Source of the DNA: a bacterium
GTDB lineage: Bacteria; Electryoneota; Electryoneia; Electryoneales; Electryoneaceae
DNA length: 64,000 nt
Direction: 5' to 3'
Assembly: GCA_963675295.2 (NCBI GenBank)
Contig: CAXXKJ010000002.1
Location: 1,440,001-1,504,000 of the forward strand
Position 1 is the first letter of the stretch, and every line of letters starts with the position of its first letter. Shown here in pieces: positions 20,615 through 59,732 of this stretch. The translations under genes were made by a program, and so were the position numbers. Below the pieces are notes generated by a model, which worked only from the letters and a program-made list of their open reading frames with translations, ran no database searches and was not told where the DNA came from.

Positions 20615-20700
20615 GGAGGATTAGCCTAATTGGTAAGGCAGCAGTCTTGAAAACTGCCGGGTGAAAGCCCTTGGGGGTTCGAGTCCCTCATCCTCCGCCA
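20615..20700 (+). tRNA. tRNA-Ser (anticodon UGA)
   Basis: GGAGGAT acceptor / ATCCTCC-G-CCA; anticodon stem GCAGT-cTTGAaa-ACTGC; long variable arm; GGTTCGAGTCC T-arm. Confidence 0.96.
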
Positions 20701-20792
20701 TACGCCCGTAACCCTTGCATTAACAGGGTTGTGGGCGTTACCTTTGGGGCGATCGTGACAAATTCGTGCCAAGCCCGAAAACGGAGCCTACA

Positions 20793-21881
20793 ATGACGCG
20801 CCCCAAGTATCCCAAGCCCTTCAAGCGTAAAGACACTGGAAAGTGGTGCATTTCGTACTTCGACCCAGAAAAGGGTAGACGTGTAAGAGAGACAGTTGGG
20901 ACAAAGGAGGAGGTTGCATTAAAAAGGGCTGGCCAGGTCTACAACGAGATGATGGCCATTTTCCTCGGCGAGCCTGATGCGGGAAGGGAAGACATATCTC
21001 TAGAAACTCTAGTCGATGAGTTTTTTCTAAGCAAGGAAGGTAGAACTGAAGCCATAACCATTAAGAGCTACCGGGCTAAAGCGATCTACCTGAAAAAGTT
21101 CATTGAAACCAAATTCCCGTCAATCAAGACCATCCGGCAAATAAAACCAGTTTACCTGGAAGAATTCCTCAAATCACGGCGGGAAGTAGGCAAGGCGCAT
21201 AGAACAGTCGAAGCTGACATGCAGGTCGTGAAAGCGGTATTCAATTTTGCTGTCGAACAAGGCTACTTGACGCAGAGTCCTGCCCGCCTGATCAAACCGT
21301 TCAAGAATCTGGATCAAGCCAAACATCCTCCATACTGGACAAAAGACGAAGTACAGAAAATCCTTGCGGAGATTAAGCCGGGATGGCGAGATGCTCATGA
21401 ATTCCTGTATCACACAGGACTTCGGAAAGCTGAGTTGATGTTCCTTACCTGGAGTGACGTGACCTTGGACGGTGAAGATTCGTACATCAGGATTCAAGCG
21501 AAAGAAGGGTGGCGTCCGAAGAACAACAAGGTAAGAGATGTTCCTCTTAACGATCGAGCCCAGGAAATTATCAAGCGACAGACGAAACTGAAATCGAACG
21601 ACTACGTGTTTCATGGACCACGTGGTGGAAAACAACTGCATCGTGACAAATTCTACCGCGAACTAAAACGAGCGCTAGAAGCTGTTGGTCTGGAAGGCGA
21701 TGTGCATCAGTGGCGTCACACGTTTGCATCACATTTGGTGGATGCAGGGGTAGGTATTGAAACTGTTTCGAAGCTCCTAGGTCATTCAACTTTAGAGATG
21801 ACTATGATTTATGTGTACTTAGCGAAAAATCGTCTTAAAAAAGCGGTAGATAAGCTTGATAGTCTTAATATTAAAGCATGA
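20793..21881 (+). CDS. Tyrosine recombinase / phage-type integrase
   Basis: Catalytic R (TGLRKAE), K (RPKN), H..R (HQWRHTFASHL), H (LLGHS), Y (TMIY); N-terminal arm-binding and SAM-like regions. Confidence 0.95.
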   Translation: MTRPKYPKPFKRKDTGKWCISYFDPEKGRRVRETVGTKEEVALKRAGQVYNEMMAIFLGEPDAGREDISLETLVDEFFLSKEGRTEAITIKSYRAKAIYLKKFIETKFPSIKTIRQIKPVYLEEFLKSRREVGKAHRTVEADMQVVKAVFNFAVEQGYLTQSPARLIKPFKNLDQAKHPPYWTKDEVQKILAEIKPGWRDAHEFLYHTGLRKAELMFLTWSDVTLDGEDSYIRIQAKEGWRPKNNKVRDVPLNDRAQEIIKRQTKLKSNDYVFHGPRGGKQLHRDKFYRELKRALEAVGLEGDVHQWRHTFASHLVDAGVGIETVSKLLGHSTLEMTMIYVYLAKNRLKKAVDKLDSLNIKA

Positions 21882-24410: not shown

Positions 24411-24428
24411 AGAAAGGATACTTATTAA

Positions 24429-26885: not shown

Positions 26886-27458
26886 ATGAACACCGAAAAC
26901 AAACAACTCCACCTGCCAGGCACCGAAATCGCGCTGCCGAATGAAATTGCTGGGCTGACGTATGTTGAAAAAGTCGATTATGCTAAAATGCATGGAATGT
27001 CTAGTGAAGCTACAGATGTTGGTTTCAAGTACAAGCTGGTAGATACCGCTAAGGCGGATATTTTTGTGTATGCCTACCCAGATGAAAAATCGAACCATGC
27101 TGCGAATGCTGTCGATCTGGTAAACCACTATTTCGACTGCGTGAACGAAGTCCTTCAGTCAGAAGGGAACTACCGATCATACGCCAGGCTTATAGGGCAG
27201 CAACTTCTACAGGTGCAAGATTACCCGTATCTCACAAGTTGGTTTGTATTGCAGGAAGATCCAGACGGCGATCCCCTTTATTCCCTTTTGGCACTGACGG
27301 CAGTGTGTGGGTACTACCTGAAAATCAGGTATTCCGTGCGGCTGACCGATCCAAATGCTACATCAATCCCAGCTGGCTTGGATGAAAGCACGATGAAATT
27401 CCTGACTGAACTAACTTCTTATCTTGGGAAATCCAATGGCAAGAGAGTGGAACTGTGA
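26886..27458 (+). CDS. Hypothetical protein
   Basis: 190-aa ORF with AAGGA RBS; no recognised motif. Confidence 0.6.
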   Translation: MNTENKQLHLPGTEIALPNEIAGLTYVEKVDYAKMHGMSSEATDVGFKYKLVDTAKADIFVYAYPDEKSNHAANAVDLVNHYFDCVNEVLQSEGNYRSYARLIGQQLLQVQDYPYLTSWFVLQEDPDGDPLYSLLALTAVCGYYLKIRYSVRLTDPNATSIPAGLDESTMKFLTELTSYLGKSNGKRVEL

Positions 27459-27676
27459 ATAGACCAATAGCCGAACCACAGAAACAAAACAAGAAACTAC
27501 TGCGCGCCTTGGGTATCCGCCACTCAGCACCAGATCGCTACCGCAGAATTGACTCTGCAAACGCAGGTCATGCTGGAGATACACCGTCGTCAGGTGGATC
27601 TAGCCAGGATTCCTTCATGCACGATCTGCGGCAAATGGATCAGATGTTTGACGAGTGGTGGCAGGGTCGGCGATGA
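27455..27676 (+). CDS. Small 'EWW' protein, copy A
   Basis: GTGA overlap with the upstream gene; LLRALGIRHS...DSFMHDLRQMDQMFDEWWQGRR, paralogous to 33501-33779. Confidence 0.65.
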   Translation: MNRPIAEPQKQNKKLLRALGIRHSAPDRYRRIDSANAGHAGDTPSSGGSSQDSFMHDLRQMDQMFDEWWQGRR

Positions 27677-27865
27677 TAGTGAGCTGCGTTTTCTTCATCT
27701 ATTCCAAGACAAGTTGGCAAGACGTAGTAGTTGCTTCCCTTACTCCAAAACAAAAATGAAAAATCCGGAATGCCGGGCTAACATGCCAGATGCAGAAACC
27801 GTATATTGATATTCAGGGATCGATCTAAGCCACGCAGCTTGGGTCAGTATCTGGGGGAGGGAATC

Positions 27866-30466
27866 GTGAAAAAGCTCGTCATCTTCTTTGTCGCCTTACT
27901 CATCGCTGGGTCAGCAGTAGCCCAGGACAGTCTGAATGTCAGCATGGTAGGGTCGACATATTCTCTTTGGCAAAATATGCACAATATTATTTGTTCCGGT
28001 GATTTTGCATATGTCAGTACAGGCGAAACGGGTCTTAGTATATATGATGTAAGCGATCCAGAGAACGCATTTGAAGTTGGCGGATTCGACCCACAAGCCG
28101 ATATTATAAATGCGGCAATTTTGGATTCAACCACCAGATTGATATGCCTTGGAACTGAATCAAGTGGACTTCTCATAGTTGATGCCAGTAATCCATCTGA
28201 ACCGATTCAAGTTGGGGCATGTGATTTTCCTGGTAGCATTTATGATATTTGTGTAAATGGGAATTATGCTTATGTGTCAAATCATGAATACGGTTTGCGT
28301 GTTATCGATTTTTCTAATCCCCAGCTACCTGTAGATATTGGTTTATACACAGTACCTGGACATACTGAATATGTAGAATGCCATAACAATTATTTATTTT
28401 TGACTAACAATAACTCTGGTATCAATGATGGACTTATTGTATTTGATATAAGCAATCCATTTTCGCTTATATATGTTGGATTATTGGATATTATGGGTGA
28501 TACAGGAAATATGGATATTATTAATGATTATATCTATATTATATCTAATGATAATTATTGTATAGGTATTGTCGATATTAATAATGCTATTTTACCTAAT
28601 ATTGTCGGTACTATTGAGACAGAAGGCCTATGCAGTGGCCTTGTTATTTCTGATTCTGTTTTATTTATTGAAGATCATTTAGGTAATGGATATGGAATAT
28701 ATATTTACGATATAAGTAATCCTACAAATCCTGTATTCAGAGCAGATCATCCTATTCAATCGTGGCCATACCATATTACAGCTAGTAATGATGTGTTATA
28801 TATTGGCTTTAAGAGTGTTTCATCATACACTGTTTGTTGGTTGCAATTAATTGATGTTAGCGATCCATCATCGCCATCCGATTTAACAACTTGCGGGAAC
28901 AAAGGTAGAATTTACTATTCTGCAATAAACGACAGTATAGCGTTTGTTACACTTCAAAGAGGAGGATTGGGTATTGTAAATATAGAAAATCCATCTGCTC
29001 CTTTTGAAATTATAAATATGGATATCAACACTACTAAAGATTTGGTCCTAATTGATGAATACTTATATTTGGCTGTTGATTGTGGATTATATGCTATAGA
29101 TGTGTCAGATCCATACAATCCATCCATTATTGGGGCTATATCTCTCGGTATTGTTCCATTAGATCATTTATTTGTAGCAAATAATATTGCTTATATAGTT
29201 CAAGGATCCGATGAATTAACCATGATCGATATAAATGACCCAAGTAGTTTAGTATTAATTGCTAGCTATGATACTAACTACCTTATTGATGATCTATATA
29301 TAGAAGATAACTATGCATTTGTAGCCGCCGATAATTCTGGATATCTCATATTAGATGTTAGCGATCCTTATTCCGTATTCGAAGTATCAATTTCAACCGT
29401 GCCTGGTAATGCCAATGATGTAGCCCTGGAAAATGGTTTCTCATACGTAGTTACTTCTGCTGGACTGAGTGTTTTTGATATTTCAGACCCATATTTTCCA
29501 GAAGATGTAGGTTTTTTAAGCATACCTGGATTCGCCAGACAAATAGAGATACAAGAATCATTTGCGTATTTAGCGATGGATAGTGGGGGTTTACATATTG
29601 TAAACATAAACAATCCCATAGAGCCTGTAGAAGTTGGCTTCTACGAAACACCCGGCACGGCTCGTGGGGTAGATGTGATGGATGGGTACGCTTATGTATC
29701 TGATTTCTACTATTACCACATACTAGATTGCAGAGACGCTATTGGATGGGAAGAACCACCAAACCTACTAGAAGTAAGTCTAACAGCACAAAATCCGCTG
29801 ATCGTTCCGCGTGGTAGCAGTTTTCAATATGAAGCCCTGGTAACGAGCAACCTTCCTTCACCATACAATGTAGACTTCTGGACGTATGTCAGCTTGCCCA
29901 ACGGTTCGCCTTATGGCCCGCTGCAACGGATCAACAACGTTCCGATGACACCAACGACAATCATCGGACCGGTCAACCTGGGTCTTGCTATTCCCCAGAC
30001 CGCCGTCCTGGGTGAGTACACCTTCCATATGCAGGCTGGACGATTCCCGGCAACGGTGGTCGGGGAAGACGAGTTCCCCTTTGAAGTGGTCGCAGCTACC
30101 GGCACAAACGGCCTGCCATCCAGCGATTGGTCCGCATGGGGACTGGACCAGCTACACCAGACTAGTAGCGAAGAAACGGTTACTGATGTGGCTACTCCCA
30201 CTACCTACTCGCTTGCCGGTGCGTATCCGAACCCGTTCAACGCGAGCACTACGCTGACCGTGAACCTGCCGGAGATAGCTGAATTGACCGTGGTCGTGTA
30301 CAACACGCTTGGCCAGGAGGTGGTGCGAATAGCGGACGGCACCATGTCAGCCGGTAGGCACGATTTCACCTTCAACGCCAGCACGTTATCCAGTGGTGTC
30401 TATTTTGTCCAGGTACAGGTACCAGGCAAACTGGACGAATTACAGAAGGTTGTTCTGATGAAATAG
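27866..30466 (+). CDS. Secreted LVIVD-repeat beta-propeller protein with T9SS sorting domain
   Basis: GTG start after GGGGGAG; signal peptide; many YAYV...GL.I.DVSDP..P..VG repeats; Ig-like domain; YPNPFN C-terminal domain. Confidence 0.88.
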   Translation: MKKLVIFFVALLIAGSAVAQDSLNVSMVGSTYSLWQNMHNIICSGDFAYVSTGETGLSIYDVSDPENAFEVGGFDPQADIINAAILDSTTRLICLGTESSGLLIVDASNPSEPIQVGACDFPGSIYDICVNGNYAYVSNHEYGLRVIDFSNPQLPVDIGLYTVPGHTEYVECHNNYLFLTNNNSGINDGLIVFDISNPFSLIYVGLLDIMGDTGNMDIINDYIYIISNDNYCIGIVDINNAILPNIVGTIETEGLCSGLVISDSVLFIEDHLGNGYGIYIYDISNPTNPVFRADHPIQSWPYHITASNDVLYIGFKSVSSYTVCWLQLIDVSDPSSPSDLTTCGNKGRIYYSAINDSIAFVTLQRGGLGIVNIENPSAPFEIINMDINTTKDLVLIDEYLYLAVDCGLYAIDVSDPYNPSIIGAISLGIVPLDHLFVANNIAYIVQGSDELTMIDINDPSSLVLIASYDTNYLIDDLYIEDNYAFVAADNSGYLILDVSDPYSVFEVSISTVPGNANDVALENGFSYVVTSAGLSVFDISDPYFPEDVGFLSIPGFARQIEIQESFAYLAMDSGGLHIVNINNPIEPVEVGFYETPGTARGVDVMDGYAYVSDFYYYHILDCRDAIGWEEPPNLLEVSLTAQNPLIVPRGSSFQYEALVTSNLPSPYNVDFWTYVSLPNGSPYGPLQRINNVPMTPTTIIGPVNLGLAIPQTAVLGEYTFHMQAGRFPATVVGEDEFPFEVVAATGTNGLPSSDWSAWGLDQLHQTSSEETVTDVATPTTYSLAGAYPNPFNASTTLTVNLPEIAELTVVVYNTLGQEVVRIADGTMSAGRHDFTFNASTLSSGVYFVQVQVPGKLDELQKVVLMK

Positions 30467-30500
30467 GCGGAAGTTCTGCCAGTATCTGGGGGAGAGAATC

Positions 30501-31940
30501 GTGAAAAAGCTCGCCATCCTACTTTGTGCCATTCTGATGTGCACCACTGCATCCGCGCAAGAATGGACCGAACACATGGTTGATGGCGACTTCCCTGTGG
30601 TGAGGTCTGTTTTCGCGTCGGATGTTGACGGTGACGGTGACGTCGATGTGCTGGGATCAAGAGGTGTGGGGATTACGTGGTGGGAAAACGATGATGGTTC
30701 AGGTACGCAGTGGACCGCACACACCGTAGACAACGGTGGTGCAGAATCGCTTTACGCAGCGGACGTAGACGGCGATGGTGACATGGATATTCTCGGAGCT
30801 GTGCCTTGGGATGACGAAATCGTGTGGTGGGAAAACGTCGATGGAGTGGGAACTCTCTGGGTCGAACACCCTTTGGATGGCGACTTTGAGAACGCAGGCT
30901 CAGTTCATGCGGCAGACGTTGACGGTGACGGCGACACGGATATACTTGGTGAGTCAACATCTGGTGAATACCCCATCATTTGGATGGAAAACGTTGATGG
31001 TGTGGGCTCTGAGTGGACCAGACACCCAGTGTATACCGACTTCAATCACGCAGCCTCTGTATATGCGACGGACATTGATGGTGACAGCGACACGGACGTG
31101 CTAGCTGCGGTGTATTATCCCGATAGTATCAGATGGTGGGAAAATATCCAAGGAGACGGCACGGAATGGACTGAACACATTGTGGATGATGTTTTCGGGT
31201 TAGCCGGCTTTACCGCTGAATGTGTGTATGCGGCGGACGTGAACGGTGACGGTTACATGGACGTTATTAATGTGGCGTATTATACAGACCAAGTAGCATG
31301 GTGGGAAAATATCCAAGGCGACGGCACAGAATGGACTGAACACATCGTGGACAGCTATTTCGATCAGGCGTATTCTGTACACGCCGCAGATCTTGATGGC
31401 GATGGTGATACGGACATTCTTGGGGCTCGGCATGGTTTCCGTGGGGGTTTCCGTTGGTGGGAGAACACCAATGCAGTAGGCACATCATGGACCGAACATA
31501 TCGTGCAAGAAATCTCTTGTGCCGAGGGCGGAGGACATTCCGTTTATGCGGCAGACGTTGACGGTGATGGCGATCCAGATGTGATCGGGGCAGTATCTGA
31601 TGACAACTATATCGCATGGTACGAGAATTCGCTGCAAACAACTGTCAATGAACACGTAGAAGGTGAGTACCTCCAACACTATGATCTGGTAGGTATCTAC
31701 CCCAATCCTCTCAACGGATTAGCGCGGGTTGATGTTCACCTGCCGAAGCCTGCCACGTTAACATTAGTAGTGTTCAACATCATGGGTCAACACGTTGCGA
31801 GTTTAGCCGACGGATCGTATACCACAGGAACCCACACTTTCACATTTGACGCCACCAACCTATCTAGCGGAATTTACTTCCTGCGAGCAACAGTACCTGG
31901 ACAGCTGGATCAGACACAGAAGCTGGTGCTGATGAAGTAG
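30501..31940 (+). CDS. Secreted FG-GAP-repeat protein with T9SS sorting domain
   Basis: Signal peptide; 7 WTEH...ADVDGDGD.D...WWEN repeats; YPNP.N C-terminal domain. Confidence 0.88.
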   Translation: MKKLAILLCAILMCTTASAQEWTEHMVDGDFPVVRSVFASDVDGDGDVDVLGSRGVGITWWENDDGSGTQWTAHTVDNGGAESLYAADVDGDGDMDILGAVPWDDEIVWWENVDGVGTLWVEHPLDGDFENAGSVHAADVDGDGDTDILGESTSGEYPIIWMENVDGVGSEWTRHPVYTDFNHAASVYATDIDGDSDTDVLAAVYYPDSIRWWENIQGDGTEWTEHIVDDVFGLAGFTAECVYAADVNGDGYMDVINVAYYTDQVAWWENIQGDGTEWTEHIVDSYFDQAYSVHAADLDGDGDTDILGARHGFRGGFRWWENTNAVGTSWTEHIVQEISCAEGGGHSVYAADVDGDGDPDVIGAVSDDNYIAWYENSLQTTVNEHVEGEYLQHYDLVGIYPNPLNGLARVDVHLPKPATLTLVVFNIMGQHVASLADGSYTTGTHTFTFDATNLSSGIYFLRATVPGQLDQTQKLVLMK

Positions 31941-31971
31941 GCGGAGTTTTGCCTAGATCAGGGGGGAGATC

Positions 31972-33378
31972 ATGAAAACTCTGGCGATCGTGCTTCTGGT
32001 GCTATACCAGACATCTCTAGTGATAGCACAGGAGTGGACCGAACACATCATAGATAACAGCTTCGATGGTGCATTTGACGTGTGTGCCACCGACATCGAT
32101 GGTGATGGCGACATAGATGTGGTTGGTGCTGCCAACACAGGTAACGCCGTTGCTTGGTGGGAGAACACTGATGGTATGGGTACAACATGGACCGAACACA
32201 CCCTTTACAGTCATTTTGATGGTGCTAAATCCGTATATGCAATAGATTTGGACGGCGACGGCGACATTGATGTCCTAGGAGCGGTGCAATCTGCTGACAA
32301 AATAATATGGGGGGAAAACCTCGATGGGATGGGTACTCTCTGGGCAGCTCACACCGTCGACGACGACTTCAACGGAGCTAATTTCGTGCACGCAACGGAC
32401 ATGGACGGTGATGGCGATATTGACGTGTTAGGTGCAAGTCTTTTTGATACCATCATGTGGTGGGAGAATACCGATGGTGCTGGTGCGACATGGACTGAGC
32501 ACACCATAGACGGGGACTATGATATGGATTCCGTTTGCGCAGCGGACCTGGATGGCGACGGTGACATTGATGTGCTTGGGAGTGGACATTTTATGGATTA
32601 CACCTCGTGGTGGGAAAATCTGAATGGTTCAGGTACCCAATGGTTTGAGCACACCTCGACTATCATCTCTGGATTGATATCCGCATATGCAACGGATGTC
32701 AATGGAGACGGTGACATTGATTTAGTTGGGTCGGCAATACTGGAAGGCAGCATCAATTGGTGGGAAAACCGCTTCGGCCATGGAACAAACTGGATCGAAC
32801 ACATTGTAGACAACATTCAAGCATACAAGGTGTCCGCAGCAGACTTGGACGGCGACAATGACATAGACGTGCTGAGTACTTGGGATGCATATCCATGCTA
32901 TGTCTCGTGGTGGGAAAACGCTGACGGAGGGGGTATGGACTGGTTTGAGCACTTTGTCGGTGAAAACTTAGGGCACACACGTTCACTGCAGGCCACCGAC
33001 TTGGACGGTGATGGTAGTACCGACGTGCTCTGTGCGTCGCTTCTCCAAATCGTTTGGTGGGAAAATCCTCTAATTACCAGCGTCAGAGATCAAACACAAA
33101 GCAATCGCCCAACAGAATTCAAGCTCATTCTGGCATACCCAAACCCGTTCAACCCCACAACCAACTTTGCGGTTGAATTGCCGAAACCGTCCGATTTGAC
33201 TGTTACCGTCTACAACGTGACCGGTCAACAAGTGGCAGAACTGGCGAATGGCAGCTACACCGCCGGAACGCACCGCTTCACCTTTGACGCCACCAACCTA
33301 TCTAGCGGAATTTACTTCCTGCGAGCAACAGTACCTGGACAGCTGGATCAGACACAAAAGCTGGTGCTGATGAAGTAG
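31972..33378 (+). CDS. Secreted FG-GAP-repeat protein with T9SS sorting domain
   Basis: Same repeat architecture; last 96 bp are 95/96 identical to those of 30501-31940. Confidence 0.88.
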   Translation: MKTLAIVLLVLYQTSLVIAQEWTEHIIDNSFDGAFDVCATDIDGDGDIDVVGAANTGNAVAWWENTDGMGTTWTEHTLYSHFDGAKSVYAIDLDGDGDIDVLGAVQSADKIIWGENLDGMGTLWAAHTVDDDFNGANFVHATDMDGDGDIDVLGASLFDTIMWWENTDGAGATWTEHTIDGDYDMDSVCAADLDGDGDIDVLGSGHFMDYTSWWENLNGSGTQWFEHTSTIISGLISAYATDVNGDGDIDLVGSAILEGSINWWENRFGHGTNWIEHIVDNIQAYKVSAADLDGDNDIDVLSTWDAYPCYVSWWENADGGGMDWFEHFVGENLGHTRSLQATDLDGDGSTDVLCASLLQIVWWENPLITSVRDQTQSNRPTEFKLILAYPNPFNPTTNFAVELPKPSDLTVTVYNVTGQQVAELANGSYTAGTHRFTFDATNLSSGIYFLRATVPGQLDQTQKLVLMK

Positions 33379-33500
33379 ATGTCGTACAGGGTGGTTTCAC
33401 TAATACCAGCTAAAACTGTTACATGTGCTTACGCAAGTAGCCTCGCTGGTTATCGCTAGTTTTCGCTGGCGTGACAGTAAACAATAAATCAGGAGATCTA

Positions 33501-33779
33501 ATGAATCTACATCAATCACGAAGTACTGCCAGTACGCCCCCAGATTGGGGCGACGAAAAACAACAACAAAAAGAACGAGCCAGACTAGCTCGAGCTCTTG
33601 GGTTACAGCATTCGAAAATCAAGCAAGAGCAAGAACAACCACGAATCGAAACAAACAATCCCGATGATCCACCAACATCTGGATTACCATTATCGCCTGA
33701 TTCGGCGGTGCATCAGGCAAGGCAGATCGATAGCATGTTCGAAGAGTGGTGGCAGAATCGACGGAAAGTAGGCAGCTAG
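33501..33779 (+). CDS. Small 'EWW' protein, copy B
   Basis: AGGAG RBS; LARALGLQHS...DSAVHQARQIDSMFEEWWQNRR. Confidence 0.7.
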   Translation: MNLHQSRSTASTPPDWGDEKQQQKERARLARALGLQHSKIKQEQEQPRIETNNPDDPPTSGLPLSPDSAVHQARQIDSMFEEWWQNRRKVGS

Positions 33780-33957
33780 AAAACAAGTCGAAGATCCAAT
33801 AATAAGGCCAGTAGTAGCTCAGCTCCAGATCAAGAAAGCGGCTTTGAAATTAATCTGTGGAACCTTTATATTCATCACTCTTGAACCATCCATGGCCCTG
33901 GTTCACCGATAAATCCGCGAATCTACTGTAACCTTGGTTGAGTCTTTCGAGGCAGAT

Positions 33958-35409
33958 ATGATTACCCAGATTAGACTTGAGAATTTCAAGTGTTTTCGTG
34001 ACCTGGTTACGGTAGACTTGAAGCCGATAACAGTATTCGTAGGTCCTAACTCTGGCGGCAAAAGTACACTTACTCAGCCCCTCTTGCTTCTTAAACAGAC
34101 CGTTTTGGCAAACGAGGCTAGCCAAAAGCTATTCACATACGGTCCTATAATAGATATGGGTGATGCAAAATCGATTTTTAACATTAGCAGACCAAATGAC
34201 CCTCTAGGAATTGGTATAAGCCTTACTGAGACAAGTATCCATCCAGAAGGTGATTACTTACCAGTTAATGGATCAACAACTATAAATGATCGCAAATATA
34301 ATTTCAATCCAGTTACGGATATAAATATTTCAATATATCCAAATGATGTTTTAAATATCAGAAATTTAGAAATTAATAAATATACCTTTATTAACAATAA
34401 CATCAACAATCTTCACTATGTTATTAGCACCGAACAAGATCATTTAGCGTATAGAAATAATAATGATATTCTACTAAATAACATAATAATTAATGGTAGT
34501 TTTGGAAATTATGATGTTGGTTTATTGAATCCCATGTCAGAGCATGTTGATGACGAAGGAAATCTTACATTAAAAATGGAAGAATTAGATAACGCTGATG
34601 AACTTAGAAAGATCAAAAGAATGATTAGTGGTTGGATTGGTAATATTAATTATTTTACAAAAAATATATATTTCATTCCAGCTATAAGACATATACCAAA
34701 ATTTTACAATGAATATCAAGGCATAGACCTTAATGATAATAGTAACTCATATTTGAACAGGATTGTCAAAGGTTATACTAAGGAACGCCCAACTGAAAGA
34801 AAGGCATATGTTGATAATATTATTGAGGATAGGTGGTTCAATGAGCTGTGCATAGGCAAAAAACTGATATCGCGTGCTTATAAACATGGCATGGAACTTT
34901 TAGTGGAAAGCAATGATGGTAGTTTAATAAATGTAGCTGCAATGGGTATAGGTATATCGCAATTAATGCCAATAATATTGCTATCAAAAATTGGTGAGAT
35001 CGATTCAATTATAATTCAAGAACCAGAATCACATTTGCACCCAAGTATTCAGAGGAAATTGTCAGAGATGCTATCCTTAAATGTTGGTAATAGATATGAC
35101 GAAATTGATCATATTTGTACTAGAAATGAAAAAGGTAAATTAAGTAAGATAATACAGATGTCGCTTGGGTCTCAATATATAATAGAAACACATAGTGAAC
35201 ACATTGTAAGAGGATTCCAGATAGCAGTGGCGAAGGGATTAATAAGAAATACAGATGTGGGAATTTACTATGTTGATGCATCCCAAACTGAACCCATAAT
35301 ACCGATGAACCTAGATGAAAAAGGAATTCTAGTAAATGATTGGCCAAACGATTTTTACGGTTTTTCATTTGCAATGGCAATGGAATTAAAACGATATACT
35401 GAGAATTGA
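33958..35409 (+). CDS. ABC/AAA_15-AAA_21-type ATPase with C-terminal DUF3696-like domain (copy 1)
   Basis: LENFKCF, Walker A GPNSGGKST, signature MGIGISQ, IIIQEPESHLHP, IIETHSEH, C-terminal LDEKG...WP.DFY. Confidence 0.85.
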   Translation: MITQIRLENFKCFRDLVTVDLKPITVFVGPNSGGKSTLTQPLLLLKQTVLANEASQKLFTYGPIIDMGDAKSIFNISRPNDPLGIGISLTETSIHPEGDYLPVNGSTTINDRKYNFNPVTDINISIYPNDVLNIRNLEINKYTFINNNINNLHYVISTEQDHLAYRNNNDILLNNIIINGSFGNYDVGLLNPMSEHVDDEGNLTLKMEELDNADELRKIKRMISGWIGNINYFTKNIYFIPAIRHIPKFYNEYQGIDLNDNSNSYLNRIVKGYTKERPTERKAYVDNIIEDRWFNELCIGKKLISRAYKHGMELLVESNDGSLINVAAMGIGISQLMPIILLSKIGEIDSIIIQEPESHLHPSIQRKLSEMLSLNVGNRYDEIDHICTRNEKGKLSKIIQMSLGSQYIIETHSEHIVRGFQIAVAKGLIRNTDVGIYYVDASQTEPIIPMNLDEKGILVNDWPNDFYGFSFAMAMELKRYTEN

Positions 35410-35418
35410 GGCGCTGGC

Positions 35419-36231
35419 ATGGATCATCACATTACAATATCACCAAAAGCATTTTTGCACGATTTTGATTTCAAGCAATTTCACGCAGCAATGCTTAGGA
35501 GAGATCATAAACTTGCCCTAGATGATAATGATGAGATGATCAAATATTATGATAATGTACTAAATAAAGAAATAAGAATGGCAATAATAGCGAAAATGGT
35601 ATCTATAGGTCGGCTAATACAAGAATATAATTTTAATAAAAGCATTAATAGCGAAGAAGATCTGATTATATTTTGTAAGTCTACTCAAGATAAGTTTTGT
35701 GTTTCTTCAGTAAGTGAAAGAAGCGTATATAATTTATTAATATCCGATATCATAGATGAAAACGGCTTGTTATATGAAACAAAATGTAGAACACGTCATT
35801 ACAAAAAGAATGATAGTGCTGATAACTTACTGAAAACAATGCAACACTTAATAGAAAGAAAAAAACATGGCATAGTGCAATATAAAGACAGATATATGGA
35901 AAAATGTATTCCATTTATTGAAATGATACGAGAATCAGCGAAGAAATCAAGCAGCATATTAGAACTGTATCCTGGAAAATCATATTATGAACTACAAAAG
36001 CGTTATAGCGATGATAAAGTAATTAAATTATTGAATAAGGATTCACATGATAGAATGCTGTTGGGCAGCGATTTTGAATTCTTACTTGGTAATGGTATGG
36101 ATACAGTGAGATTTAATGTCCGGAACGGTAAATTAGAAAAAGGCTGCATCTTTCGAGCTGAAAACTCAATATCGCTAAACAGAAAATCAAAGGAGCGCCC
36201 TGCAAAGGTAACTGAAGCTTGGACCTTGTAG
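35419..36231 (+). CDS. ATPase partner with C-terminal HDR (MIT_C/PLD-like) motif (copy 1)
   Basis: 9 nt after the ATPase stop; HKLALD N-terminus; YKDRY and SHDRMLLGSDFEFLLGNGMD; homologous to 58878-59732. Confidence 0.6.
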   Translation: MDHHITISPKAFLHDFDFKQFHAAMLRRDHKLALDDNDEMIKYYDNVLNKEIRMAIIAKMVSIGRLIQEYNFNKSINSEEDLIIFCKSTQDKFCVSSVSERSVYNLLISDIIDENGLLYETKCRTRHYKKNDSADNLLKTMQHLIERKKHGIVQYKDRYMEKCIPFIEMIRESAKKSSSILELYPGKSYYELQKRYSDDKVIKLLNKDSHDRMLLGSDFEFLLGNGMDTVRFNVRNGKLEKGCIFRAENSISLNRKSKERPAKVTEAWTL

Positions 36232-36237: not shown

Positions 36238-38184
36238 GTGGCTGACATGGCAAGAGTGTTCCCAAGTTGGCTTACGATCCATGATGCCTCCAAGTTTACC
36301 CCAGCACTGACCCCTGGCGAGGAATATCTGGTTGAACAGCTTGAGTCCCTCCTGGATGACAAATGGTCTGTTTATGTCCAGCCCCATTTGAATGGCGATC
36401 GACCTGATGTTGTTGCAATGAATCCAAACGTAGGTGTTACTTTTTTTGAAGTTAAGGACTGGAATTTGGATCTGTATAATGTTGATTCTTTTGACAATTG
36501 GCATGTTGTGACCAGACATGGAAGACAGACCTGGGTAGCATCTCCATTCAAGCAGGTCACCCGTTACCGTACGAATGCAATAAACCTACTTGTACCTCAA
36601 ATTGGACGTGCTGTTGATGAGGAACCCCAAAGACTACAAGCCTTAAAGACAGCCGTCTATTTCCACAATTCATCGGGCGAAATTGCCCGTAGCTTCAAGA
36701 CACCATCATCAAAGTATATATATGTGTTCGGATATGACGATTTTCCAAATGGTCTGCAAAAAATTATTCCAGACTTCGGGTACTCGAGCTCAAAATACAT
36801 GAAACCGAATTGGGCCAAGGAGCTAGCTCCTTGGCTACTTCCGCCCAGGCATGAAGCAACGCACGGGCGACTCCCATTGAGTCGTGAACAACGTCAACAC
36901 GCAACGCCATCGCAGGGCTTTCATCGGTTAAGAGGGGTTGCAGGATCTGGTAAAAGCTTGGTTGTAGCACATAGAGCGGCTGCCAATGCGCAAGCCGGTA
37001 AGCGAGTTTTGGTTTTGTGTTTCAATATCACGCTTGTGAATTACCTTTTGGATCTAGTAAAACGCGCACCTTACAACTTTGACCCATCATATATATCGAT
37101 TAGATATTTTCATGATGCATGTATCTGGATTAATGATAAGTTAGGAAGTTATCTTTCGGCTAAGAAGGGTGATGAAGAGGTATATTTTGAAAAAACAGTT
37201 CCGAATAAGACAATTAACGCCTTAGAAAGTTACATGACACTGAATGGTAGATTGCCATACGAGTTACGCTTCGACAGTGTACTGATAGATGAAGGCCAAG
37301 ATTTTACAAGGTCTTACTATGAGGTGGCAAGGATCTTGGCATCCGCATCCGGGAGAGAATTTGAATTGTTCATGACTGCTGACTACGCCCAGAACATTTA
37401 CAACCGTGAGTATAGCTGGTTGGAGGATATGAGGGGAACCGGTTTCCGTGGTGCCTGGGGAAAGCTTGCAAAAACATATAGAATGCGTCAAAGATTCGCA
37501 TCTGCTGCATGGCGTTTTGCTCAGGCTTGTGGGTTGGACACAGATTTACCAGAATTTGATGTAAACCAAGTTGGCCTGCTTGAAACCCTCGTATACTACC
37601 GTACGAAAGATATAGAGTCAGCCTGCAGAATCGCACTTGGGTGCTATGAATACCTTAGATCGGTTAGAGGTGTGCATCCACAGGATACAGCACTCTTGGT
37701 GCCCGACCATTCAACTGGTGTTAGTATGGCGACATGGTTAAATAATCAGGGAAATAGGGTTAATCATGTTTTTAGTACAGCTATAGACGAGAGACAAAGA
37801 CATAAAAAAGGTTTTTGGATGGGGCAAGGTGGAATAAAAATGTCCACAATACATAGTTTTAAAGGATGGGAGATTAATAGTTTGATATTAATAGCTAATA
37901 AAGAAACTTTAGCTAACATTAATACATCTATGATAATATATGTAGCTTTAACACGTGCGATCGAAAACATATATATTATATCTACTTATGATATAATCAA
38001 TATAGAAACCACAGAGCCTGATAATATCCCACTAGAAATATTAGAATATGCAGGAAAGACATCTTTTACGATCAACTGGAGAAATACTGTTCGTTCAAGT
38101 GACGAAGGATTGGATTACTATGACCGTATTGATCCTCCAGAAACTCATGGAGATGCTTGGTCATTCGGAATTGACGACGATTAG
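36238..38184 (+). CDS. NERD-domain nuclease fused to a UvrD/SF1-like helicase
   Basis: TPGE, QPHLNGDRPD...FFEVKDW (NERD); GVAGSGKS, LIDEGQDF, D.AQNIY, TIHSFKGWE, YVALTRA. Confidence 0.88.
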   Translation: MADMARVFPSWLTIHDASKFTPALTPGEEYLVEQLESLLDDKWSVYVQPHLNGDRPDVVAMNPNVGVTFFEVKDWNLDLYNVDSFDNWHVVTRHGRQTWVASPFKQVTRYRTNAINLLVPQIGRAVDEEPQRLQALKTAVYFHNSSGEIARSFKTPSSKYIYVFGYDDFPNGLQKIIPDFGYSSSKYMKPNWAKELAPWLLPPRHEATHGRLPLSREQRQHATPSQGFHRLRGVAGSGKSLVVAHRAAANAQAGKRVLVLCFNITLVNYLLDLVKRAPYNFDPSYISIRYFHDACIWINDKLGSYLSAKKGDEEVYFEKTVPNKTINALESYMTLNGRLPYELRFDSVLIDEGQDFTRSYYEVARILASASGREFELFMTADYAQNIYNREYSWLEDMRGTGFRGAWGKLAKTYRMRQRFASAAWRFAQACGLDTDLPEFDVNQVGLLETLVYYRTKDIESACRIALGCYEYLRSVRGVHPQDTALLVPDHSTGVSMATWLNNQGNRVNHVFSTAIDERQRHKKGFWMGQGGIKMSTIHSFKGWEINSLILIANKETLANINTSMIIYVALTRAIENIYIISTYDIINIETTEPDNIPLEILEYAGKTSFTINWRNTVRSSDEGLDYYDRIDPPETHGDAWSFGIDDD

Positions 38185-40499: not shown

Positions 40500-43400
40500 T
40501 CAGTCAATAACGAACGCATTTGGCCAGCCACCGTGTTCTTCGATGACTTCATCGATCTCGCCCACGATGAGGATGGTCTTCTGTATGGCAACAATGATCT
40601 TCTTGTAGTGCTCGATGTCTTCATCGGTTAATGTGCGCCCTGGCCGACCTTTCTTCGGCCCCCTGTCCTTTAGCCACTTCTTGCAAACAGGGTATCCCCC
40701 AATTTCATAATTCCACAGTTTGCTTGATATACCCGAAAACGAAATGTTCTTATCTTTATCTATCCATATCATGTTATCTTTAAATAATACTGAAGATATC
40801 CTCGGTGAAGCGCCGGAAGTGTTTTCATATGATACTGACGACAATGAATCAATTTTTTTTAACATATGTATATTTGTTAACTCTTTACCTTTGGTTTCTA
40901 GTTTTTCATACAATACTTTAGATTTGGTTATTGGGATATGCGGGTAATCAGATCGTAATTGCTTATCATATCGAGTACGGTATTTACTTGAATATAATAT
41001 GGCGTATATATAATATATGGATACATTTTCTTTGATGTTATTTATTGTATAATTATCTATTCTACCCATAACATCTTGTTTATAATATAATACTTGGGGT
41101 AAATAAGCTACTTTTCCTTTTGTACTGTAAAACGATCGATTGTTTGGAAGTACATTTGTTATTAATGCATGTGTAAAATATGAACCGATTGATACCTGCC
41201 TCATTATCATTAATGCTATATTATCATGCTCCACAAGATGTTTTCCAACTCTATAACTTGCAGTCATAACAAATTCCGGATTATAATACGCATATCTAAT
41301 ATCAAAAGGAGCATATAAAAACTTTATAATCGAACCATTTAGTTTATTATCGGTTACCATAGATTTTCTACGCGAAAATAAATCCTTTGCATAGACACCT
41401 GTAAGTCTATACTCTGATGTAACAATTTCATCTGATAAGGTAGAAAATTTTATTATATTATCTAATAACTCTTCTTTTGTAAATGCCGTAAGTAGTTGAT
41501 CATAACCGGAAGTAAACCCGGTAGCAAAATCATTGAATAATTCAGCACAAGAAATATAATTATTATATTCAGCATCAATAGAAACGTCTGATATATCAAA
41601 AATATAATTAGGTCTAATTGGTGATATCACTTTTAATGATAAGCTAGTGGCAGTTTCTTTTAGGAGTGTAGCATATTTATCATCACGAATGCCATAAATA
41701 TCTTTATAAAGCGTTAACATCTCGTTTGTAGTACTTTTTAATTTATATGAAATATTTATAGTAACTCCCTTTTTTATATCAAATACGTTATTATCTGGTT
41801 TTCCTTCCGGTGTACGTTCTTTTTTATCAGCATCACCGTGTAAATTAACTACCATCATACGATCACAATTCGATATAAGATTCCACCTAAATCCCCTAAG
41901 AGATAGCGCATCTAAGTAACTGTTATTTGTTATATAACCAATAATATTAGGAATATTCGCTGTAACTAATTGGGATAATCTAAAAAACTTGATATAATCG
42001 TCATTAAGATTACGTTCAAGCGACAAAGCACTCTTTTCGGAAATAGGAAGATTGTCTATGTATCGATACACATCTATCATCGATTTGACTGAATTAGACA
42101 TGTTAGCAGACATCTGCGCATAAGGTGGATTTGCAATAATTATCGTAAATAATTTATTAAACATAATATTCTGAACCATAGTTGCTTCTTTGGCAAGAGC
42201 GGGTAATATATTCTTTAGTGATACTTGTTTGTGGCCTGTAATAAATTCAAGCGAGTTTGAGAGATAAATGCGAGCTCTCTCTGAGGACTTGAAGTCATAT
42301 CCTGTTTCAATGAGTTTCAAACCAATCTTCATGTGTGCAATTGCATAAGGCGCCATCAGAAGTTCGAAGCCGTGAAGGCGAGGAAGTAGGGAATCCGCTA
42401 CATAGTCATTCCACAGGTCGTGGATTTCAGTCTTGCTATTTCCCGCTGACTTCCACTTTTTCTTCATCGTAGTATGTATAACGCCGATGACTTCAACCAG
42501 GAATGTGCCAGTTCCTGTTGCTGGATCAAGGATTTGGACAAACGGCTTTTCCGGATCAGCGCTATTTGGTATTTCGAAATCATCAATCCGCTGTCCCATC
42601 TCCCCCCAAGTTGTTGTATCCGCCAAACCGTCTTCCAAGCCAAATTCGGTTCGGAGTAGTTCATCTACGGACCTTACGATGAACGAAACTACCGGTCGTG
42701 GGGTATAGAAGACACCGCGTTGCATCCTCTTTTTCGCGTCGTATTCCTTAAGAAACAGCTCATAGAAGTGGATTACGGGGTCTTCGTAGGGATTGCGGTC
42801 ACCAAAGTCGCGCAAAACGGCTTCCATGTTTGCGTCCCGCAGAAGCTGTACGACTTCGTTTACACCCAATTCATCAAAATCGATGCCTGTACCCCGATTA
42901 TCACCATCTCGATCACGACCACCCATCTTCAGAAAGGTCTCGAGAAGTTCCTTCAGAAACGGATTGGTTACGGGGACCATGTCTGCGGCGTTATCGGCAA
43001 CCAAACCTTCCGGGCGCGATATCCTTGCCGTCAGTAACCCGTATGCGATGGTCTGTGCGTACATGTCTGCAAAGTCGTCTTCTTCCAGATCATGGATCAG
43101 CGCTTTTTTGAAGCTGTCCATCATGGTGCGGAGTGGACCTTTTTCGGATTCTGAATCCAGAGCTGAATTCACCTTCTTGCGAATGACCTTGGCCAGTTCA
43201 GCCAACCGAATCGCCAGGGCTTTTGATGTAGTAATGACCTCGCGGTGTCGAACCTGGAAGGCCTTCGACCATTCTTCACGCCAGGTATCCGTATCGGTGG
43301 GATCGTCCGGCCATCGAAGCCGGGTCTTCATCGTCTGAACCGAGTGTTCCAAGTGAAGGACTGTGTTTTCACCGTCCCACCCTAGAACATGAAGTGTGGG

Positions 43401-43832: not shown

Positions 43833-43841
43833 AACCTTCTC

Positions 43842-53301: not shown

Positions 53302-53303
53302 AA

Positions 53304-57411: not shown

Positions 57412-58863
57412 ATGATCACCCAGATAAGATTGGAAAATTTTAAGTGTTTTCGTGACCTGGTTACGGTAGACTTGAAGCCGATAACAGTATTCGTAGGTCC
57501 TAACTCTGGCGGCAAAAGTACACTTACCCAACCTTTGCTATTGTTTAAACAGTCTAAACTTTTCAAAGCATCTAAAAATGAAATCCCAACCAGTGGTCCA
57601 ATAATTGACTTAGGAGAACCAAAACATCTGTTCAATACTTCTGCGCCAAATAACGAAATGGTGCTCGGCCTGAGCATAGCAGAAACAAATTTCCACCCAG
57701 ACGGTGATGCTTATCGTCCAATCACAAACACTGCAGAACTATCCAACAAGGAGATTATGTTCAACCCTGTATCAGATTTTGACATAATAGTTTCTGCCAA
57801 TGACAAACTATATTTAGATAGATTCAAGTTAAATGGATTGCGTTTTCTTATAAATAATAACTATATACCACGTTACAGTTTACTAAACGACAGCAATACG
57901 AATTTTGAAATTGATAAGAAAAGAAGCATTCTTAGTGAGCTAAATATTGACGGAAACTTCGGCAATTTCAAAGTATCTAAACGTAGTATTGGCTATAGCG
58001 ATGAAGAAGGCCGGCTTGTCATAGACACTAGTAAAAAACATCAGGATGAAGATTTTTTGCGAAAAGAACATCTTATGGAAGTAGGAATATCTAACCTAAA
58101 TTTTTTTCCTCAAATATTGCACTTTGTTCCTGCATGGCGTTCTATTCCAAAGTATTTCACACAATATAAATCAATATCACCACATAACAGTGATACATCT
58201 TATTTAGAAACAATTATTGGGCGCTATACTAATTACATGGCATCTAATGATCAACCTTATAAAGATAATAGTATAGAAGATAATTGGCTAAAGAAGTTAA
58301 ATATAGGGTATAGACTCGTATCACGCGCATATAAGCATGGGATTGAACTTCTTGTAGATGTAGATGGTGACAACCTAATTAATGTCGCCTCTATGGGAAT
58401 GGGAGTATCACAATTAATTCCTATAATAATATTATCCAATATAGATTATATAGATACATTGATTATTCAAGAGCCTGAATCACATCTTCATCCAAATACA
58501 CAACGTAAAATTGCTGAACTATTGGCCGCTAATGTAGGAAATAGACAAGATGAAGTAGCTCACATAGGTATTCGAAATAAAGAGGGCATAATTAACAAAT
58601 TGAGACCGTTAACACTTGGATCACAGTATATTATCGAGACGCATAGTGAACACATAGTACGCGGATTCCAGATTGCAGTGGCAAAAGGTATAATTAAGAA
58701 TTCAGATGTTGCCATATATTTTGTCGACGCAAGCCAGGAGAATCCAATCGTACCCATGGAACTCGATGAGAAAGGAATGTTAATGCGCAAATGGCCGAAC
58801 GATTTCTATGGGTTGGCGTACTCTATGACACTGGAGCTAAACCAGATTCAATCCGACAATTGA
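57412..58863 (+). CDS. ABC/AAA-type ATPase with DUF3696-like C-terminus (copy 2)
   Basis: Same motifs and same length (1452 nt) as 33958-35409. Confidence 0.85.
   Translation: MITQIRLENFKCFRDLVTVDLKPITVFVGPNSGGKSTLTQPLLLFKQSKLFKASKNEIPTSGPIIDLGEPKHLFNTSAPNNEMVLGLSIAETNFHPDGDAYRPITNTAELSNKEIMFNPVSDFDIIVSANDKLYLDRFKLNGLRFLINNNYIPRYSLLNDSNTNFEIDKKRSILSELNIDGNFGNFKVSKRSIGYSDEEGRLVIDTSKKHQDEDFLRKEHLMEVGISNLNFFPQILHFVPAWRSIPKYFTQYKSISPHNSDTSYLETIIGRYTNYMASNDQPYKDNSIEDNWLKKLNIGYRLVSRAYKHGIELLVDVDGDNLINVASMGMGVSQLIPIIILSNIDYIDTLIIQEPESHLHPNTQRKIAELLAANVGNRQDEVAHIGIRNKEGIINKLRPLTLGSQYIIETHSEHIVRGFQIAVAKGIIKNSDVAIYFVDASQENPIVPMELDEKGMLMRKWPNDFYGLAYSMTLELNQIQSDN
57442..57527 (+). repeat. 86-bp exact repeat of 33988-34073
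   Basis: AAGTGTTTTCGTGACCTGG...GGCAAAAGTACACTTAC is identical in both ATPase genes. Confidence 0.95.
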
Positions 58864-58877: not shown

Positions 58878-59732
58878 ATGGACTTCGATATAGCTTTCAG
58901 TCCTGACGTATTGAGATTTTTTGTGCTAAAGAATCCTGAGTCAGGAGAACGACTGATCGATATAATGAGTGAGCGGCGCCATAAACTGGTAGTTGATGAA
59001 CATGGAGCTGCCCTACATCTTTATGAAGAAGCGTGTGGAGAAGCGTGGGAGTATTTTTTTCGAGAGTTTGGATCGTATGTCCAATCCCGCAAGATTAATT
59101 CGCCAAAAGATTCTGATGATGCTGATTTCTTGCTAGACTTAGCTTCAAGATCACGAGATCGTGTTTGGATTGGAAGCGGATCGACTGACAGAGAATTGAT
59201 ACGACTTAGCATTGATGAGCTGCTAGAAAATGGAAACATATTATTCTACACTTACACTCAGGTTCCCCCACGCGAATTCAGAAAAGGTCACGACGCTAGT
59301 GGGTTTCTAAAGAGTCTACATCACATGATAGCTCGAACAAGGCATGATGAGATCCGGCTCGAAGATCCATATATCACTGCTGTCGAAGACGAGTTCTTGG
59401 AATTCTTGTGTAATGCGATGACGAGTTCAGATTGCAAGGTGCTCGTCATGCCTTGGAAGGATATGGAAGTACCAAATTCTAGAACAACCAGGGAATCAAT
59501 AAGTCAGTACATGGAAGCGTCAAATATTCGGGTAGTATGGCAGAAGTATCCAAAACTTGATTTTCACGACAGACGTATACGCGGTGACGATTTTATCTAT
59601 GATCTCCACAATTCATTCAGTCGGATCGACATGAAGCGGCGTCAGTTCCGTGGCCAATTTAGATTCAGCATATCGCGTGCAGATGAACTTGTTAAAATCG
59701 AAGATCCGCCCAAAGTTTCCATTTCTTTATAA
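58878..59732 (+). CDS. ATPase partner with C-terminal MIT_C/PLD-like HDR domain (copy 2)
   Basis: ATG at 58878 after GGAGG; HKLVVD; EIRLEDPYI and FHDRRIRGDDFIYDL. Confidence 0.65.
   Translation: MDFDIAFSPDVLRFFVLKNPESGERLIDIMSERRHKLVVDEHGAALHLYEEACGEAWEYFFREFGSYVQSRKINSPKDSDDADFLLDLASRSRDRVWIGSGSTDRELIRLSIDELLENGNILFYTYTQVPPREFRKGHDASGFLKSLHHMIARTRHDEIRLEDPYITAVEDEFLEFLCNAMTSSDCKVLVMPWKDMEVPNSRTTRESISQYMEASNIRVVWQKYPKLDFHDRRIRGDDFIYDLHNSFSRIDMKRRQFRGQFRFSISRADELVKIEDPPKVSISL

Follow-up and report, generated by a model that had tools for sequence, protein, structure and literature searches.

Two copies of a paired DUF3696-type ATPase and PIN-PLD gene unit as candidate NsnA-free defence modules in a tRNA-Ser island

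Within a 64,000-nucleotide (nt) stretch of an Electryoneaceae genome (assembly GCA_963675295.2, contig CAXXKJ010000002.1, positions 1,440,001 to 1,504,000; hereafter the window), two gene pairs each couple an ABC ATPase of 483 amino acids (aa) to a partner that, in structure models, comprises a PIN-like domain followed by a domain with the fold of MITD1 and of PLD-type proteins. We consider it probable that each pair is a self-contained anti-phage module of the Menshen/HEC-03 type that operates without the Menshen protein NsnA, and in which the ATPase would act as the sensor and release a PLD-fold nuclease. As part of this reading, Menshen NsnBC, HEC-03, PDC-M55 and the window pairs would probably all belong to one DUF3696-ATPase family. 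Defence, binding of the partner and nuclease activity are attributed to the window pairs by analogy. The features concerned are the following.

33958..35409, + strand: copy 1 ABC ATPase, AAA_15/OLD-ABC class with a DUF3696-like tail, 483 aa
35419..36231, + strand: copy 1 partner, 270 aa, predicted PIN-like domain plus MITD1/PLD fold
36046..36054, + strand: HDR motif of the copy 1 partner, predicted catalytic His210/Arg212
57412..58863, + strand: copy 2 ABC ATPase, 483 aa, motifs as in copy 1
58878..59732, + strand: copy 2 partner, 284 aa, predicted PIN-like domain plus MITD1/PLD fold
59565..59573, + strand: HDR motif of the copy 2 partner, His230/Arg232, HxRxxxxD spacing

The ATPases and their PIN-PLD partners

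The coordinates, open reading frames (ORFs) and ATPase lengths of the two units (33958-36231 and 57412-59732) match those of a preliminary description made from the sequence, and every motif quoted there is present: the Walker B variant IIQEPE in both ATPases (residues 352 and 351 in copies 1 and 2, respectively), HKL..D (30/35), D.Y (157/163), HDR (210/230) and G.DF...L (216/236) in both partners, and EIRLEDPYI in the copy 2 partner only. The gap between ATPase stop and partner start is 9 nt in copy 1 and 14 nt in copy 2. The frame of the copy 2 partner is open already from 58791 (313 aa); the start at 58878 is preferred, as it has GGAGG upstream and aligns to Met1 of the copy 1 partner.

Both ATPases match AAA_15 above the Pfam cut-off (E 2.5e-21 for copy 1 and 8.5e-26 for copy 2) and belong to the AAA_15/AAA_21 class of ABC ATPases. 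Their DUF3696 matches (16.2 bits, E 0.012, and 20.8 bits, E 0.0005) lie below the Pfam cut-off of 22, and their tails align with those of DUF3696-positive relatives; the earlier assignment to the DUF3696 class is thus supported, though at a sub-threshold score. The best PADLOC model of both is Menshen NsnB (165.6 bits, E 6e-49; 176.9 bits, E 2e-52), followed by the ATPases of HEC-03 and PDC-M55 and by AriA, and the relatives are distant, with best non-self matches of E 3e-29 or weaker. Neither partner matched any PADLOC model at E<=0.05. The absence of a PADLOC hit, which had been proposed as a sign of novelty, was therefore found for the partners, for which PADLOC 2.0 has no model, but not for the ATPases.

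Walker A reads GPNSGGKS at residue 29 in both ATPases, and copy 1 carries an Arg at 244 and an ETHSEH switch. Across the ATPase alignment R243, G329 and G331 are invariant, the Q motif being replaced by Arg and the SGG of the signature by GxG (MGIGIS and MGMGVS in the window proteins). In the QE form of Walker B the catalytic Glu is retained, and the Mg-binding position is no longer acidic. This motif had been singled out as atypical; it is indeed present in both copies, but an altered Walker B is the norm in this family, for among 120 ATPases (the two window copies and 118 matches) the pair is EQ in 64, EN in 34, QE in 3, of which two are the window's own, and some other pair in 9, with 10 unparsed. 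QE was also considered as a marker of PIN-PLD pairs and rejected, since three GTDB ATPases with short partners carry it and are placed elsewhere in the tree.

The partners required a structural approach. Pfam MIT_C scored 17.3 bits (E 0.0046) for the copy 2 partner, against a cut-off of 25, and gave no match in the copy 1 partner; because both the DUF3696 and the MIT_C scores fall below the Pfam cut-offs, the fold assignments rest on structure models. The copy 1 partner was modelled with a predicted local distance difference test score (pLDDT) of 86.5 and a predicted template-modelling score (pTM) of 0.84, and the copy 2 partner with a pLDDT of 66. Over its C-terminal domain (residues ~121-258) the copy 1 model is closest to MITD1 (2YMB; Z 11.9, root-mean-square deviation (rmsd) 2.8, 130 residues aligned), with NucT next at Z 10.3, and the copy 2 model (residues 134-258) also matches 2YMB (Z 8.7, rmsd 3.2, 115 aligned). 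Foldseek, suggested earlier as a check of the partner fold, ranks MITD1 first for copy 1 (E 5e-5) and second for copy 2. Over the N-terminal region (~1-114 and 1-122) PIN folds are retrieved (7F3E at Z 7.7 for copy 1, 1Y82 at Z 8.1 for copy 2), and many PIN families match residues 1-125 of both models at Z values that are middling yet consistent. According to these models the partners are thus a PIN-like domain joined to an MIT_C/PLD domain; the preliminary description had recognized the PLD-like C-terminal domain and overlooked the PIN-like N-terminal half.

Both models show the PLD alpha/beta fold, and the canonical HxK(x4)D motif is replaced by one with HxR. The family consensus HDRxIxxD retains the canonical spacing, copy 1 having Ser at +7 and Asp at +8. 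In an alignment of 14 related partners that are only 10-24% identical to copy 2, the HDR motif never varies in its His or Arg, the Asp upstream of it is almost as strictly kept, and no acidic residue of the PIN tetrad is conserved. D157 with HDR 210-212 (copy 1) and D163 with HDR 230-232 (copy 2) are accordingly the predicted active-site residues, and their retention among such highly diverged proteins argues for catalysis.

Homologues of the partners are difficult to retrieve by sequence. Word-indexed searches with each partner returned the query alone, and a two-partner profile run against 1.84 billion representatives gave five matches, namely copy 2 itself and the closest relatives of the partners, four proteins (P0005-P0008). 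Nothing was found at E<=1 by tblastn of partner 2 against plasmids, nor with the partner of a related locus (L032), and a PDB sequence search with the partner alignment gave nothing below E 0.47. In the ESM Atlas, unnamed clusters of 281-295 aa were matched, one of them with 10% MIT_C (0.94 for copy 2, 0.82 for copy 1), which serves as a lead only. A profile of the PLD partners did not align with canonical BECR-type NsnC (probability 0.1%), as expected for fast-evolving domains. Prediction of a 1:1 ATPase-partner complex with alignments and without controls gave no answer (score 0.00) and carries no weight for or against binding; the published assembly is 4:2.

The two ATPases are each other's closest relatives in both similarity searches and trees and are 50% identical (E 1e-173), whereas the partners, as had been noted earlier, are highly diverged (22% identity across 294 columns, pairwise E 8e-13). 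Between copies, identity falls to 14-24% over ATPase residues 133-220, as against 56-100% in the core, and residues 1-44 are identical. At the nucleotide level, 133 bp at the 5′ ends of the two ATPase genes (33947-34079 and 57401-57533) are 92% identical, far above the remainder, and identical codons are enriched in the shared 5′ end (32 of 43, compared with 76 of 192 elsewhere; Fisher p 4e-5). This pattern suggests that the 5′ ends were exchanged more recently than the rest; the block is possibly a junction of gene conversion or cassette swapping, and constraint near the start codon could contribute to the identity. The copies would stem from an old duplication or from a related import; their inserts and effectors have diverged, and they may for that reason respond to different phages. 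The different triggers suggested in the preliminary description would be in keeping with the 14-24% identity over residues 133-220. Several Menshen variants per genome have been reported in 53 genomes (Li et al., 2025; PMC12065111, cited here and below from the part of the text available), so two copies in one island would not be unusual.

Related loci and the search for NsnA

NsnA was looked for in the window. Pfam GmrSD_N has no match among 25 island proteins; a hidden Markov model built from seven NsnA proteins and run over all six frames of the window gives no match at E<=1, yet scores a held-out NsnA (L103) at E 2e-70; tblastn with NsnA gives a best E of 0.36; and the DNA upstream of both copies contains no long ORF.

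The preliminary description had proposed a recurring two-gene unit, and the ATPase is indeed found with a PIN-PLD partner in at least 14 loci besides the window. A GTDB scan with the ATPase alignment, covering the best 80 of 352 confirmed loci and using a Walker B pattern that excludes EN and thereby biases it against canonical NsnB, yielded a PLD-type partner (295-362 aa, D...H[DA]R) in at least nine loci (L009, L010, L018, L032, L038, L043, L048, L068 and L072); among the GTDB loci listed, the HEC-03 PIN model was matched by 43 of the 64 downstream proteins scanned. On plasmids, 20 of 41 ATPase-matching records were fetched, approximately one per organism, giving seven canonical Menshen loci and three with a PLD partner (L001, L099, L100). 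A partner-first search added two further PLD loci (L101, L102), and the three phage loci fetched from 14 matching records comprised one canonical Menshen locus and none with a PLD partner. No DUF262 gene was found in any of the 14 PLD loci, in 0.8-6 kb of upstream DNA, and no PLD partner in any of the eight Menshen loci.

Nine of the 14 partners trained the partner profile, which, of those held out, recovered L009 (E 3e-14), L099 (0.01), L100 (0.01) and L102 (0.004; hhalign 92%). It missed L101, which was counted on the strength of its motifs and of a 31% match to L099. The L032 partner passes the Pfam MIT_C cut-off (37 bits) and weakly matches PADLOC NsnC and BrxL, which ties the set of PLD loci to the published Menshen family. 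Some relatives occur on plasmids or beside integrases, and three (L099, L100, L102) lie in type I restriction-modification (R-M) operons beside hsdS.

The ATPases themselves differ between the two kinds of locus. All eight NsnA-linked ATPases measure 352-428 aa and have EN (six) or DS (two) as Walker B, whereas the 15 PLD-linked ATPases (13 from intact loci and the two in the window) measure 441-664 aa and have EQ, EE or QE. The NsnB model scores 352 and 405 bits on two true NsnB proteins, compared with 119-217 on PLD-linked ATPases. In a 33-row mixture-model tree the seven NsnB form their own clade (support 100/100), and the window pair joins L010, L038 and L043, all NsnA-less PLD loci, in a set with support 96/93, which nests in a 96/92 set that contains each of the 11 PLD-linked rows together with two of TOPRIM type. 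A quick tree of 77 rows shows broadly the same arrangement at lower support, and it too leaves the window pair outside the seven-row NsnB clade. The trees sampled only these seven NsnB, none with a PLD effector. Ten split, partial or pattern-failing ATPases were omitted from the first tree, L099 and L100 being restored in the 77-row tree, which omits about half of the HEC-03 rows; the 33-row tree was thinned further, for example by dropping the long-branch P0011. As the trees are unrooted, they do not give which form, with or without NsnA, came first.

Several further associations were seen among the relatives. RtcR/CARF-type regulators, a class with links to RNA repair, adjoin three of the 14 PLD loci (L010 9996-11561, L038 309-1274, L072 2069-3577) and may hint at an RNA target. 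DUF262 genes of the GmrSD type lie near some non-PLD pairs (L008 9256-11055, L030 999-2972, L036 8064-9572, L094 4371-6143), outside the NsnA position and with only 26-32 bits on the NsnA profile. Other NsnA-less ATPases of the DUF3696 type have partners that, in classes assigned by eye from motifs, look PIN-BECR-like (L004, L005, L042, L045, L104) or PIN-TOPRIM-like (L002, L036, L088, L094, L105); PADLOC has no model for the BECR-like partners that were scanned, and in the 33-row tree three of the ATPases paired with BECR-like partners adjoin the NsnB clade. Two more ATPase clades have short PIN-like partners with no HEC-03 match (L037, L055, L080, L084, L085; and L047, L063, L073), the latter with a QE Walker B that is independent of the one in the window pair. 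An RNA-ligase-family gene repeatedly follows HEC-03-type pairs (L089, L092, L093, L054, L056, L061, L077, L011), which hints at an RNA break-and-repair module.

Genomic setting of the pairs

Both pairs lie inside a low-GC island whose left edge is marked by a tRNA-Ser gene and an integrase, and this setting is a tRNA-Ser defence island, in line with the context proposed earlier. Two features of the island are listed here.

20615..21881, + strand: tRNA-Ser (20615-20700), then a tyrosine integrase; left boundary of the low-GC island
33471..33779, + strand: small ORF of 102 aa upstream of copy 1; island-specific repeat ORF

GC content is 58.8% over positions 1-20000 versus 44.2% over 20766-64000, and 32-43% in the four pair genes. 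The genes at 20615-26561 (tRNA-Ser, tyrosine integrase, an excisionase-like helix-turn-helix protein and a DUF5906/P4-type primase-helicase) look like those of an integrative element or satellite. No second tRNA-Ser copy of >=14 nt (att site) was found within the window, and Rfam over 20000-64000 found tRNA only. Defence-type neighbours comprise a NERD-UvrD gene (36238-38184), a type IIG/ISP R-M gene with a PLD-SNF2 helicase (40500-47048), the former 4.3 kb from copy 1, a PADLOC candidate PDC-M09A/B pair (51967-54785; E 5e-89 and 3e-165) whose PDC-M09A gene carries a 66-bp tandem repeat at ~52114-52371, a PDC-S26-like PD-(D/E)XK gene (54927-56030) and a Mokosh-like SF1 helicase whose C-terminus is a nuclease domain (60520-63957). 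The NERD-UvrD gene was considered as a third component of the system and rejected, as it follows copy 1 only and a Pfam scan of PLD-locus neighbours contains none. Three secreted repeat proteins sharing a C-terminal sorting-like tail are encoded at 27806-33378 within the island, and genes resembling them are also present in the high-GC host region (654-2660, 7554-11366, 18580-20022).

The small ORF upstream of copy 1 has a paralogue at 27410-27676 (42%, E 2e-12) and a broken relic near 57114-57224, so that the island holds three members of this family (RALG..HS ... RQ.D.MF.EWWQ), each directly before a cargo block. It has no Pfam or PADLOC assignment and no match in any fetched relative locus; it may mark repeated modules of the element; it is not NsnA, and it probably does not belong to the pair system. 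The DNA upstream of the two copies is similar beyond chance (score 45, reached by none of 1000 shuffles), and this similarity belongs to the small ORF. A system-specific leader was considered and dropped, because the sequence occurs a third time at 27410-27676, ahead of unrelated cargo, and the fetched loci lack it. Promoter matches were no commoner there than in shuffles.

Proposed mechanism and relation to known systems

In the mechanism that we favour, an ATPase oligomer would hold the partner through the DUF3696 tails and the PIN-like domain, as in the NsnB4-NsnC2 complexes predicted for Menshen, in which the tails clamp the PIN domain (Li et al., 2025; PMC12065111). The enlarged, fast-evolving insert of the ATPase would sense a phage protein or a DNA lesion and so replace NsnA; a built-in sensor is expected in the insert because the extra ATPase length lies there and because it is the least conserved part between the copies. 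ATP turnover would then release or unmask the partner. Single-motif PLD nucleases (Nuc/Zucchini type) work as dimers, with the active site formed by dimerization, and release followed by dimerization would therefore be a natural switch. Released partners would pair, cut nucleic acid and abort infection, as in PARIS, in which an ABC ATPase sensor sequesters a nuclease that dimerizes on release (PMC11464382, from the part of the source available).

Several observations weigh against this reading. The motif is H-D-R instead of the canonical H-x-K, and HAR or HSR in five of 14 relatives; enzyme activity of MIT_C is undemonstrated and stands as a hypothesis only in the available text of Li et al. 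(PMC12065111). The NsnA search covered a 64-kb window out of a 4.5-Mb contig, NsnA-linked PLD loci were not fairly sampled by a GTDB scan that excluded EN and took 80 of 352 loci, and the DNA covered upstream of L068 and L038 extends over no more than 0.8 kb and 1.4 kb, respectively. Finally, the window pair sits on a long branch, and an approximately unbiased (AU) test does not reject its joining the NsnB clade (p 0.217).

That AU result is also compatible with the pairs being ordinary Menshen systems whose nsnA has been lost, leaving decayed remnants, or acts in trans from another place in the genome. The architecture is identical to NsnB with NsnC(inPIN-PB-PLD1), and NsnB is the best PADLOC match. 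Yet both pairs are intact and have kept their catalytic motifs despite deep divergence, the window has no trace of nsnA, all 14 related loci likewise lack it in the DNA covered, and length, Walker B and NsnB-model score set the window ATPases apart from NsnA-linked NsnB, and we hold this account to be improbable. A guarding role, which is compatible with the favoured mechanism, would have the ATPase monitor a nearby R-M complex, as PrrC does, and the PLD effector fire when a phage inhibits restriction. Because three relatives sit in type I R-M operons, in the position next to hsdS that PrrC is described as taking in the partly available sources, this is a live variant, and the type IIG/ISP R-M gene near copy 1 and the precedents of PrrC and PARIS (PMC11464382, in part) also favour it; since no R-M operon surrounds the other 11 relatives or either window copy, we nevertheless think it unlikely.

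It is about equally unlikely, in our judgement, that the modules are defensive but that the MIT_C/PLD domain is not a nuclease, acting instead on phospholipid or another phosphodiester or by binding only, with cutting perhaps left to the PIN-like domain. The closest structure is MITD1, for which catalysis is undemonstrated, the fold neighbours include lipases, polyphosphate kinase and TrmB, and one preprint, in the part available, argues that Menshen PIN domains can be active. The conservation pattern in the 14 partners, with His and Arg invariant, Asp nearly so and the PIN acidic residues unconserved, speaks against it, as do the nucleases NucT, Zucchini, Nuc, SauUSI and BfiI among the next structural matches and the PIN, BECR-like or TOPRIM-like nuclease domains that sister partners bear at the same position. 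Least probable of all appears a selfish, toxin-antitoxin-like addiction module that would stabilize the island without an anti-phage role: a toxin and an ATPase encoded by two genes on an integrative element, with relatives on plasmids and beside integrases, would suit it, but the tested family members Menshen and HEC-03 are anti-phage and the neighbours are defence genes.

More tentatively, the favoured reading can be extended. NsnA-free ATPases paired with PIN effectors might constitute a broad family (PIN, PIN-PLD, PIN-TOPRIM-like and PIN-BECR-like), of which Menshen would be a branch with a shortened ATPase and an added DUF262 sensor; the PIN-PLD branch would then be an uncatalogued defence system with an MIT_C-fold enzyme, a release-dimerization switch and window copies that have swapped sensor-effector cassettes downstream of a common 5′ end encoding Walker A. 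If this were true, the effector would provide the first demonstrated case of an enzyme with the MIT_C/MITD1 fold. The pairs offer a direct test of whether the MIT_C fold, found in human MITD1 and BREX BrxL, is catalytic. In the published model of Menshen, NsnA is needed as the sensor and its signalling to NsnB is unexplained (Li et al., 2025; PMC12065111); a version that occurs naturally without NsnA, and whose effector type is already published, would place sensing in the ATPase and provide a minimal two-gene system for dissection, and the two diverged copies in one island are a ready swap experiment on trigger specificity. The finding would also bring Menshen, HEC-03 and PDC-M55 together in one family. 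No new category is involved, as nuclease pairs controlled by an ATPase are a well-known theme. Neither the two window partners nor 13 of the 14 related ones are covered by a model in PADLOC 2.0, and NsnA-free PIN-PLD loci would therefore go uncalled.

The preliminary description called the system undescribed and outside existing definitions. For its parts this does not hold, because the same architecture has been published for Menshen NsnB with NsnC(inPIN-PB-PLD1) (Li et al., 2025; PMC12065111). As described there, NsnB combines AAA_15 with DUF3696, has EN as its Walker B (in S. silvestris), replaces the Q motif by Arg and carries a GxG signature; NsnC joins an inactive PIN to one of 15 effectors; and one of these, PB-PLD1, is MIT_C-like (2YMB at Z 11.4, NucT at 8.9) and bears an HDR motif as well as an acidic residue that follows beta2. 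The window pairs share with NsnBC the AAA_15 ATPase, the DUF3696-like tail, the altered Walker B, the Arg of the Q motif and GxG, and their partners share the PIN-like N-terminus and the MIT_C-like C-terminus with acidic residue and HDR, giving the same top structural matches as PB-PLD1 (2YMB, then NucT 6EHI). They differ from Menshen in lacking an NsnA (ParB-DUF262) gene directly upstream of the ATPase, in an ATPase that is longer (483 versus 352-428 aa), has QE rather than EN or DS and reaches about half the NsnB-model score, and in a partner that no PADLOC NsnC model matches. The 1,997 Menshen systems of Li et al. were gathered from DUF262 seeds, so that NsnA-less pairs fall outside that sample, and a term search of the available text found no NsnA-less case (PMC12065111).

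We found no paper defining an NsnA-free ATPase with a PIN-PLD partner in the literature searched, including the available parts of 10.1101/2024.01.29.577857, 10.1101/2025.07.10.664194, 10.64898/2026.08.28.747851 and PMC12839542, and the combination is absent from PADLOC 2.0; the classification of ABC-ATPase conflict systems by Krishnan et al. (2020) may already list the pairing. Menshen is unmentioned in the portion available of this version of 10.1101/2022.05.11.491447.

Among two-gene systems, HEC-03 reportedly protects its host and needs both of its genes to do so (Payne et al., 10.1101/2024.01.29.577857, in the part available), and it resembles the window pairs in its related ATPase (PADLOC HEC-03B E 4e-29 and 3e-28), PIN-fold partner and lack of DUF262. 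Its partner, however, is a lone VapC-like PIN of ~165 aa, whereas the PIN-like domain in the window lacks a conserved acidic motif and is fused to PLD, and its ATPases form a separate clade in the 33-row tree. The PADLOC candidate PDC-M55 likewise has two genes and a related ATPase (PDC-M55A E 3e-25 and 3e-29), and its ATPases share an 18-row tree set with PLD-linked ATPases; its partner looks TOPRIM-like from motifs read by eye, and PDC-M55B matches the L002 and L036 partners but neither window partner. PARIS offers the same layout of ATPase and nuclease and serves as the mechanistic template, but AriB is a TOPRIM protein, whereas the window effector folds as MITD1/PLD and has no AriB match; AriA matches the window ATPases more weakly than NsnB does (E 3e-24 and 8e-30), and PARIS lacks the DUF3696-PIN pairing. 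The MITD1 C-terminal domain and BrxL-associated MIT_C (PF16565) are the best structural match of both effector domains, although they occur with other domain partners and in another context, and the window proteins score below the Pfam cut-off. By analogy, then, the pairs would work in the manner of Menshen NsnBC and HEC-03, yet they depart from a defining feature of each: both parts belong to described families, and what is new is the NsnA-free two-gene format with a PIN-PLD effector.

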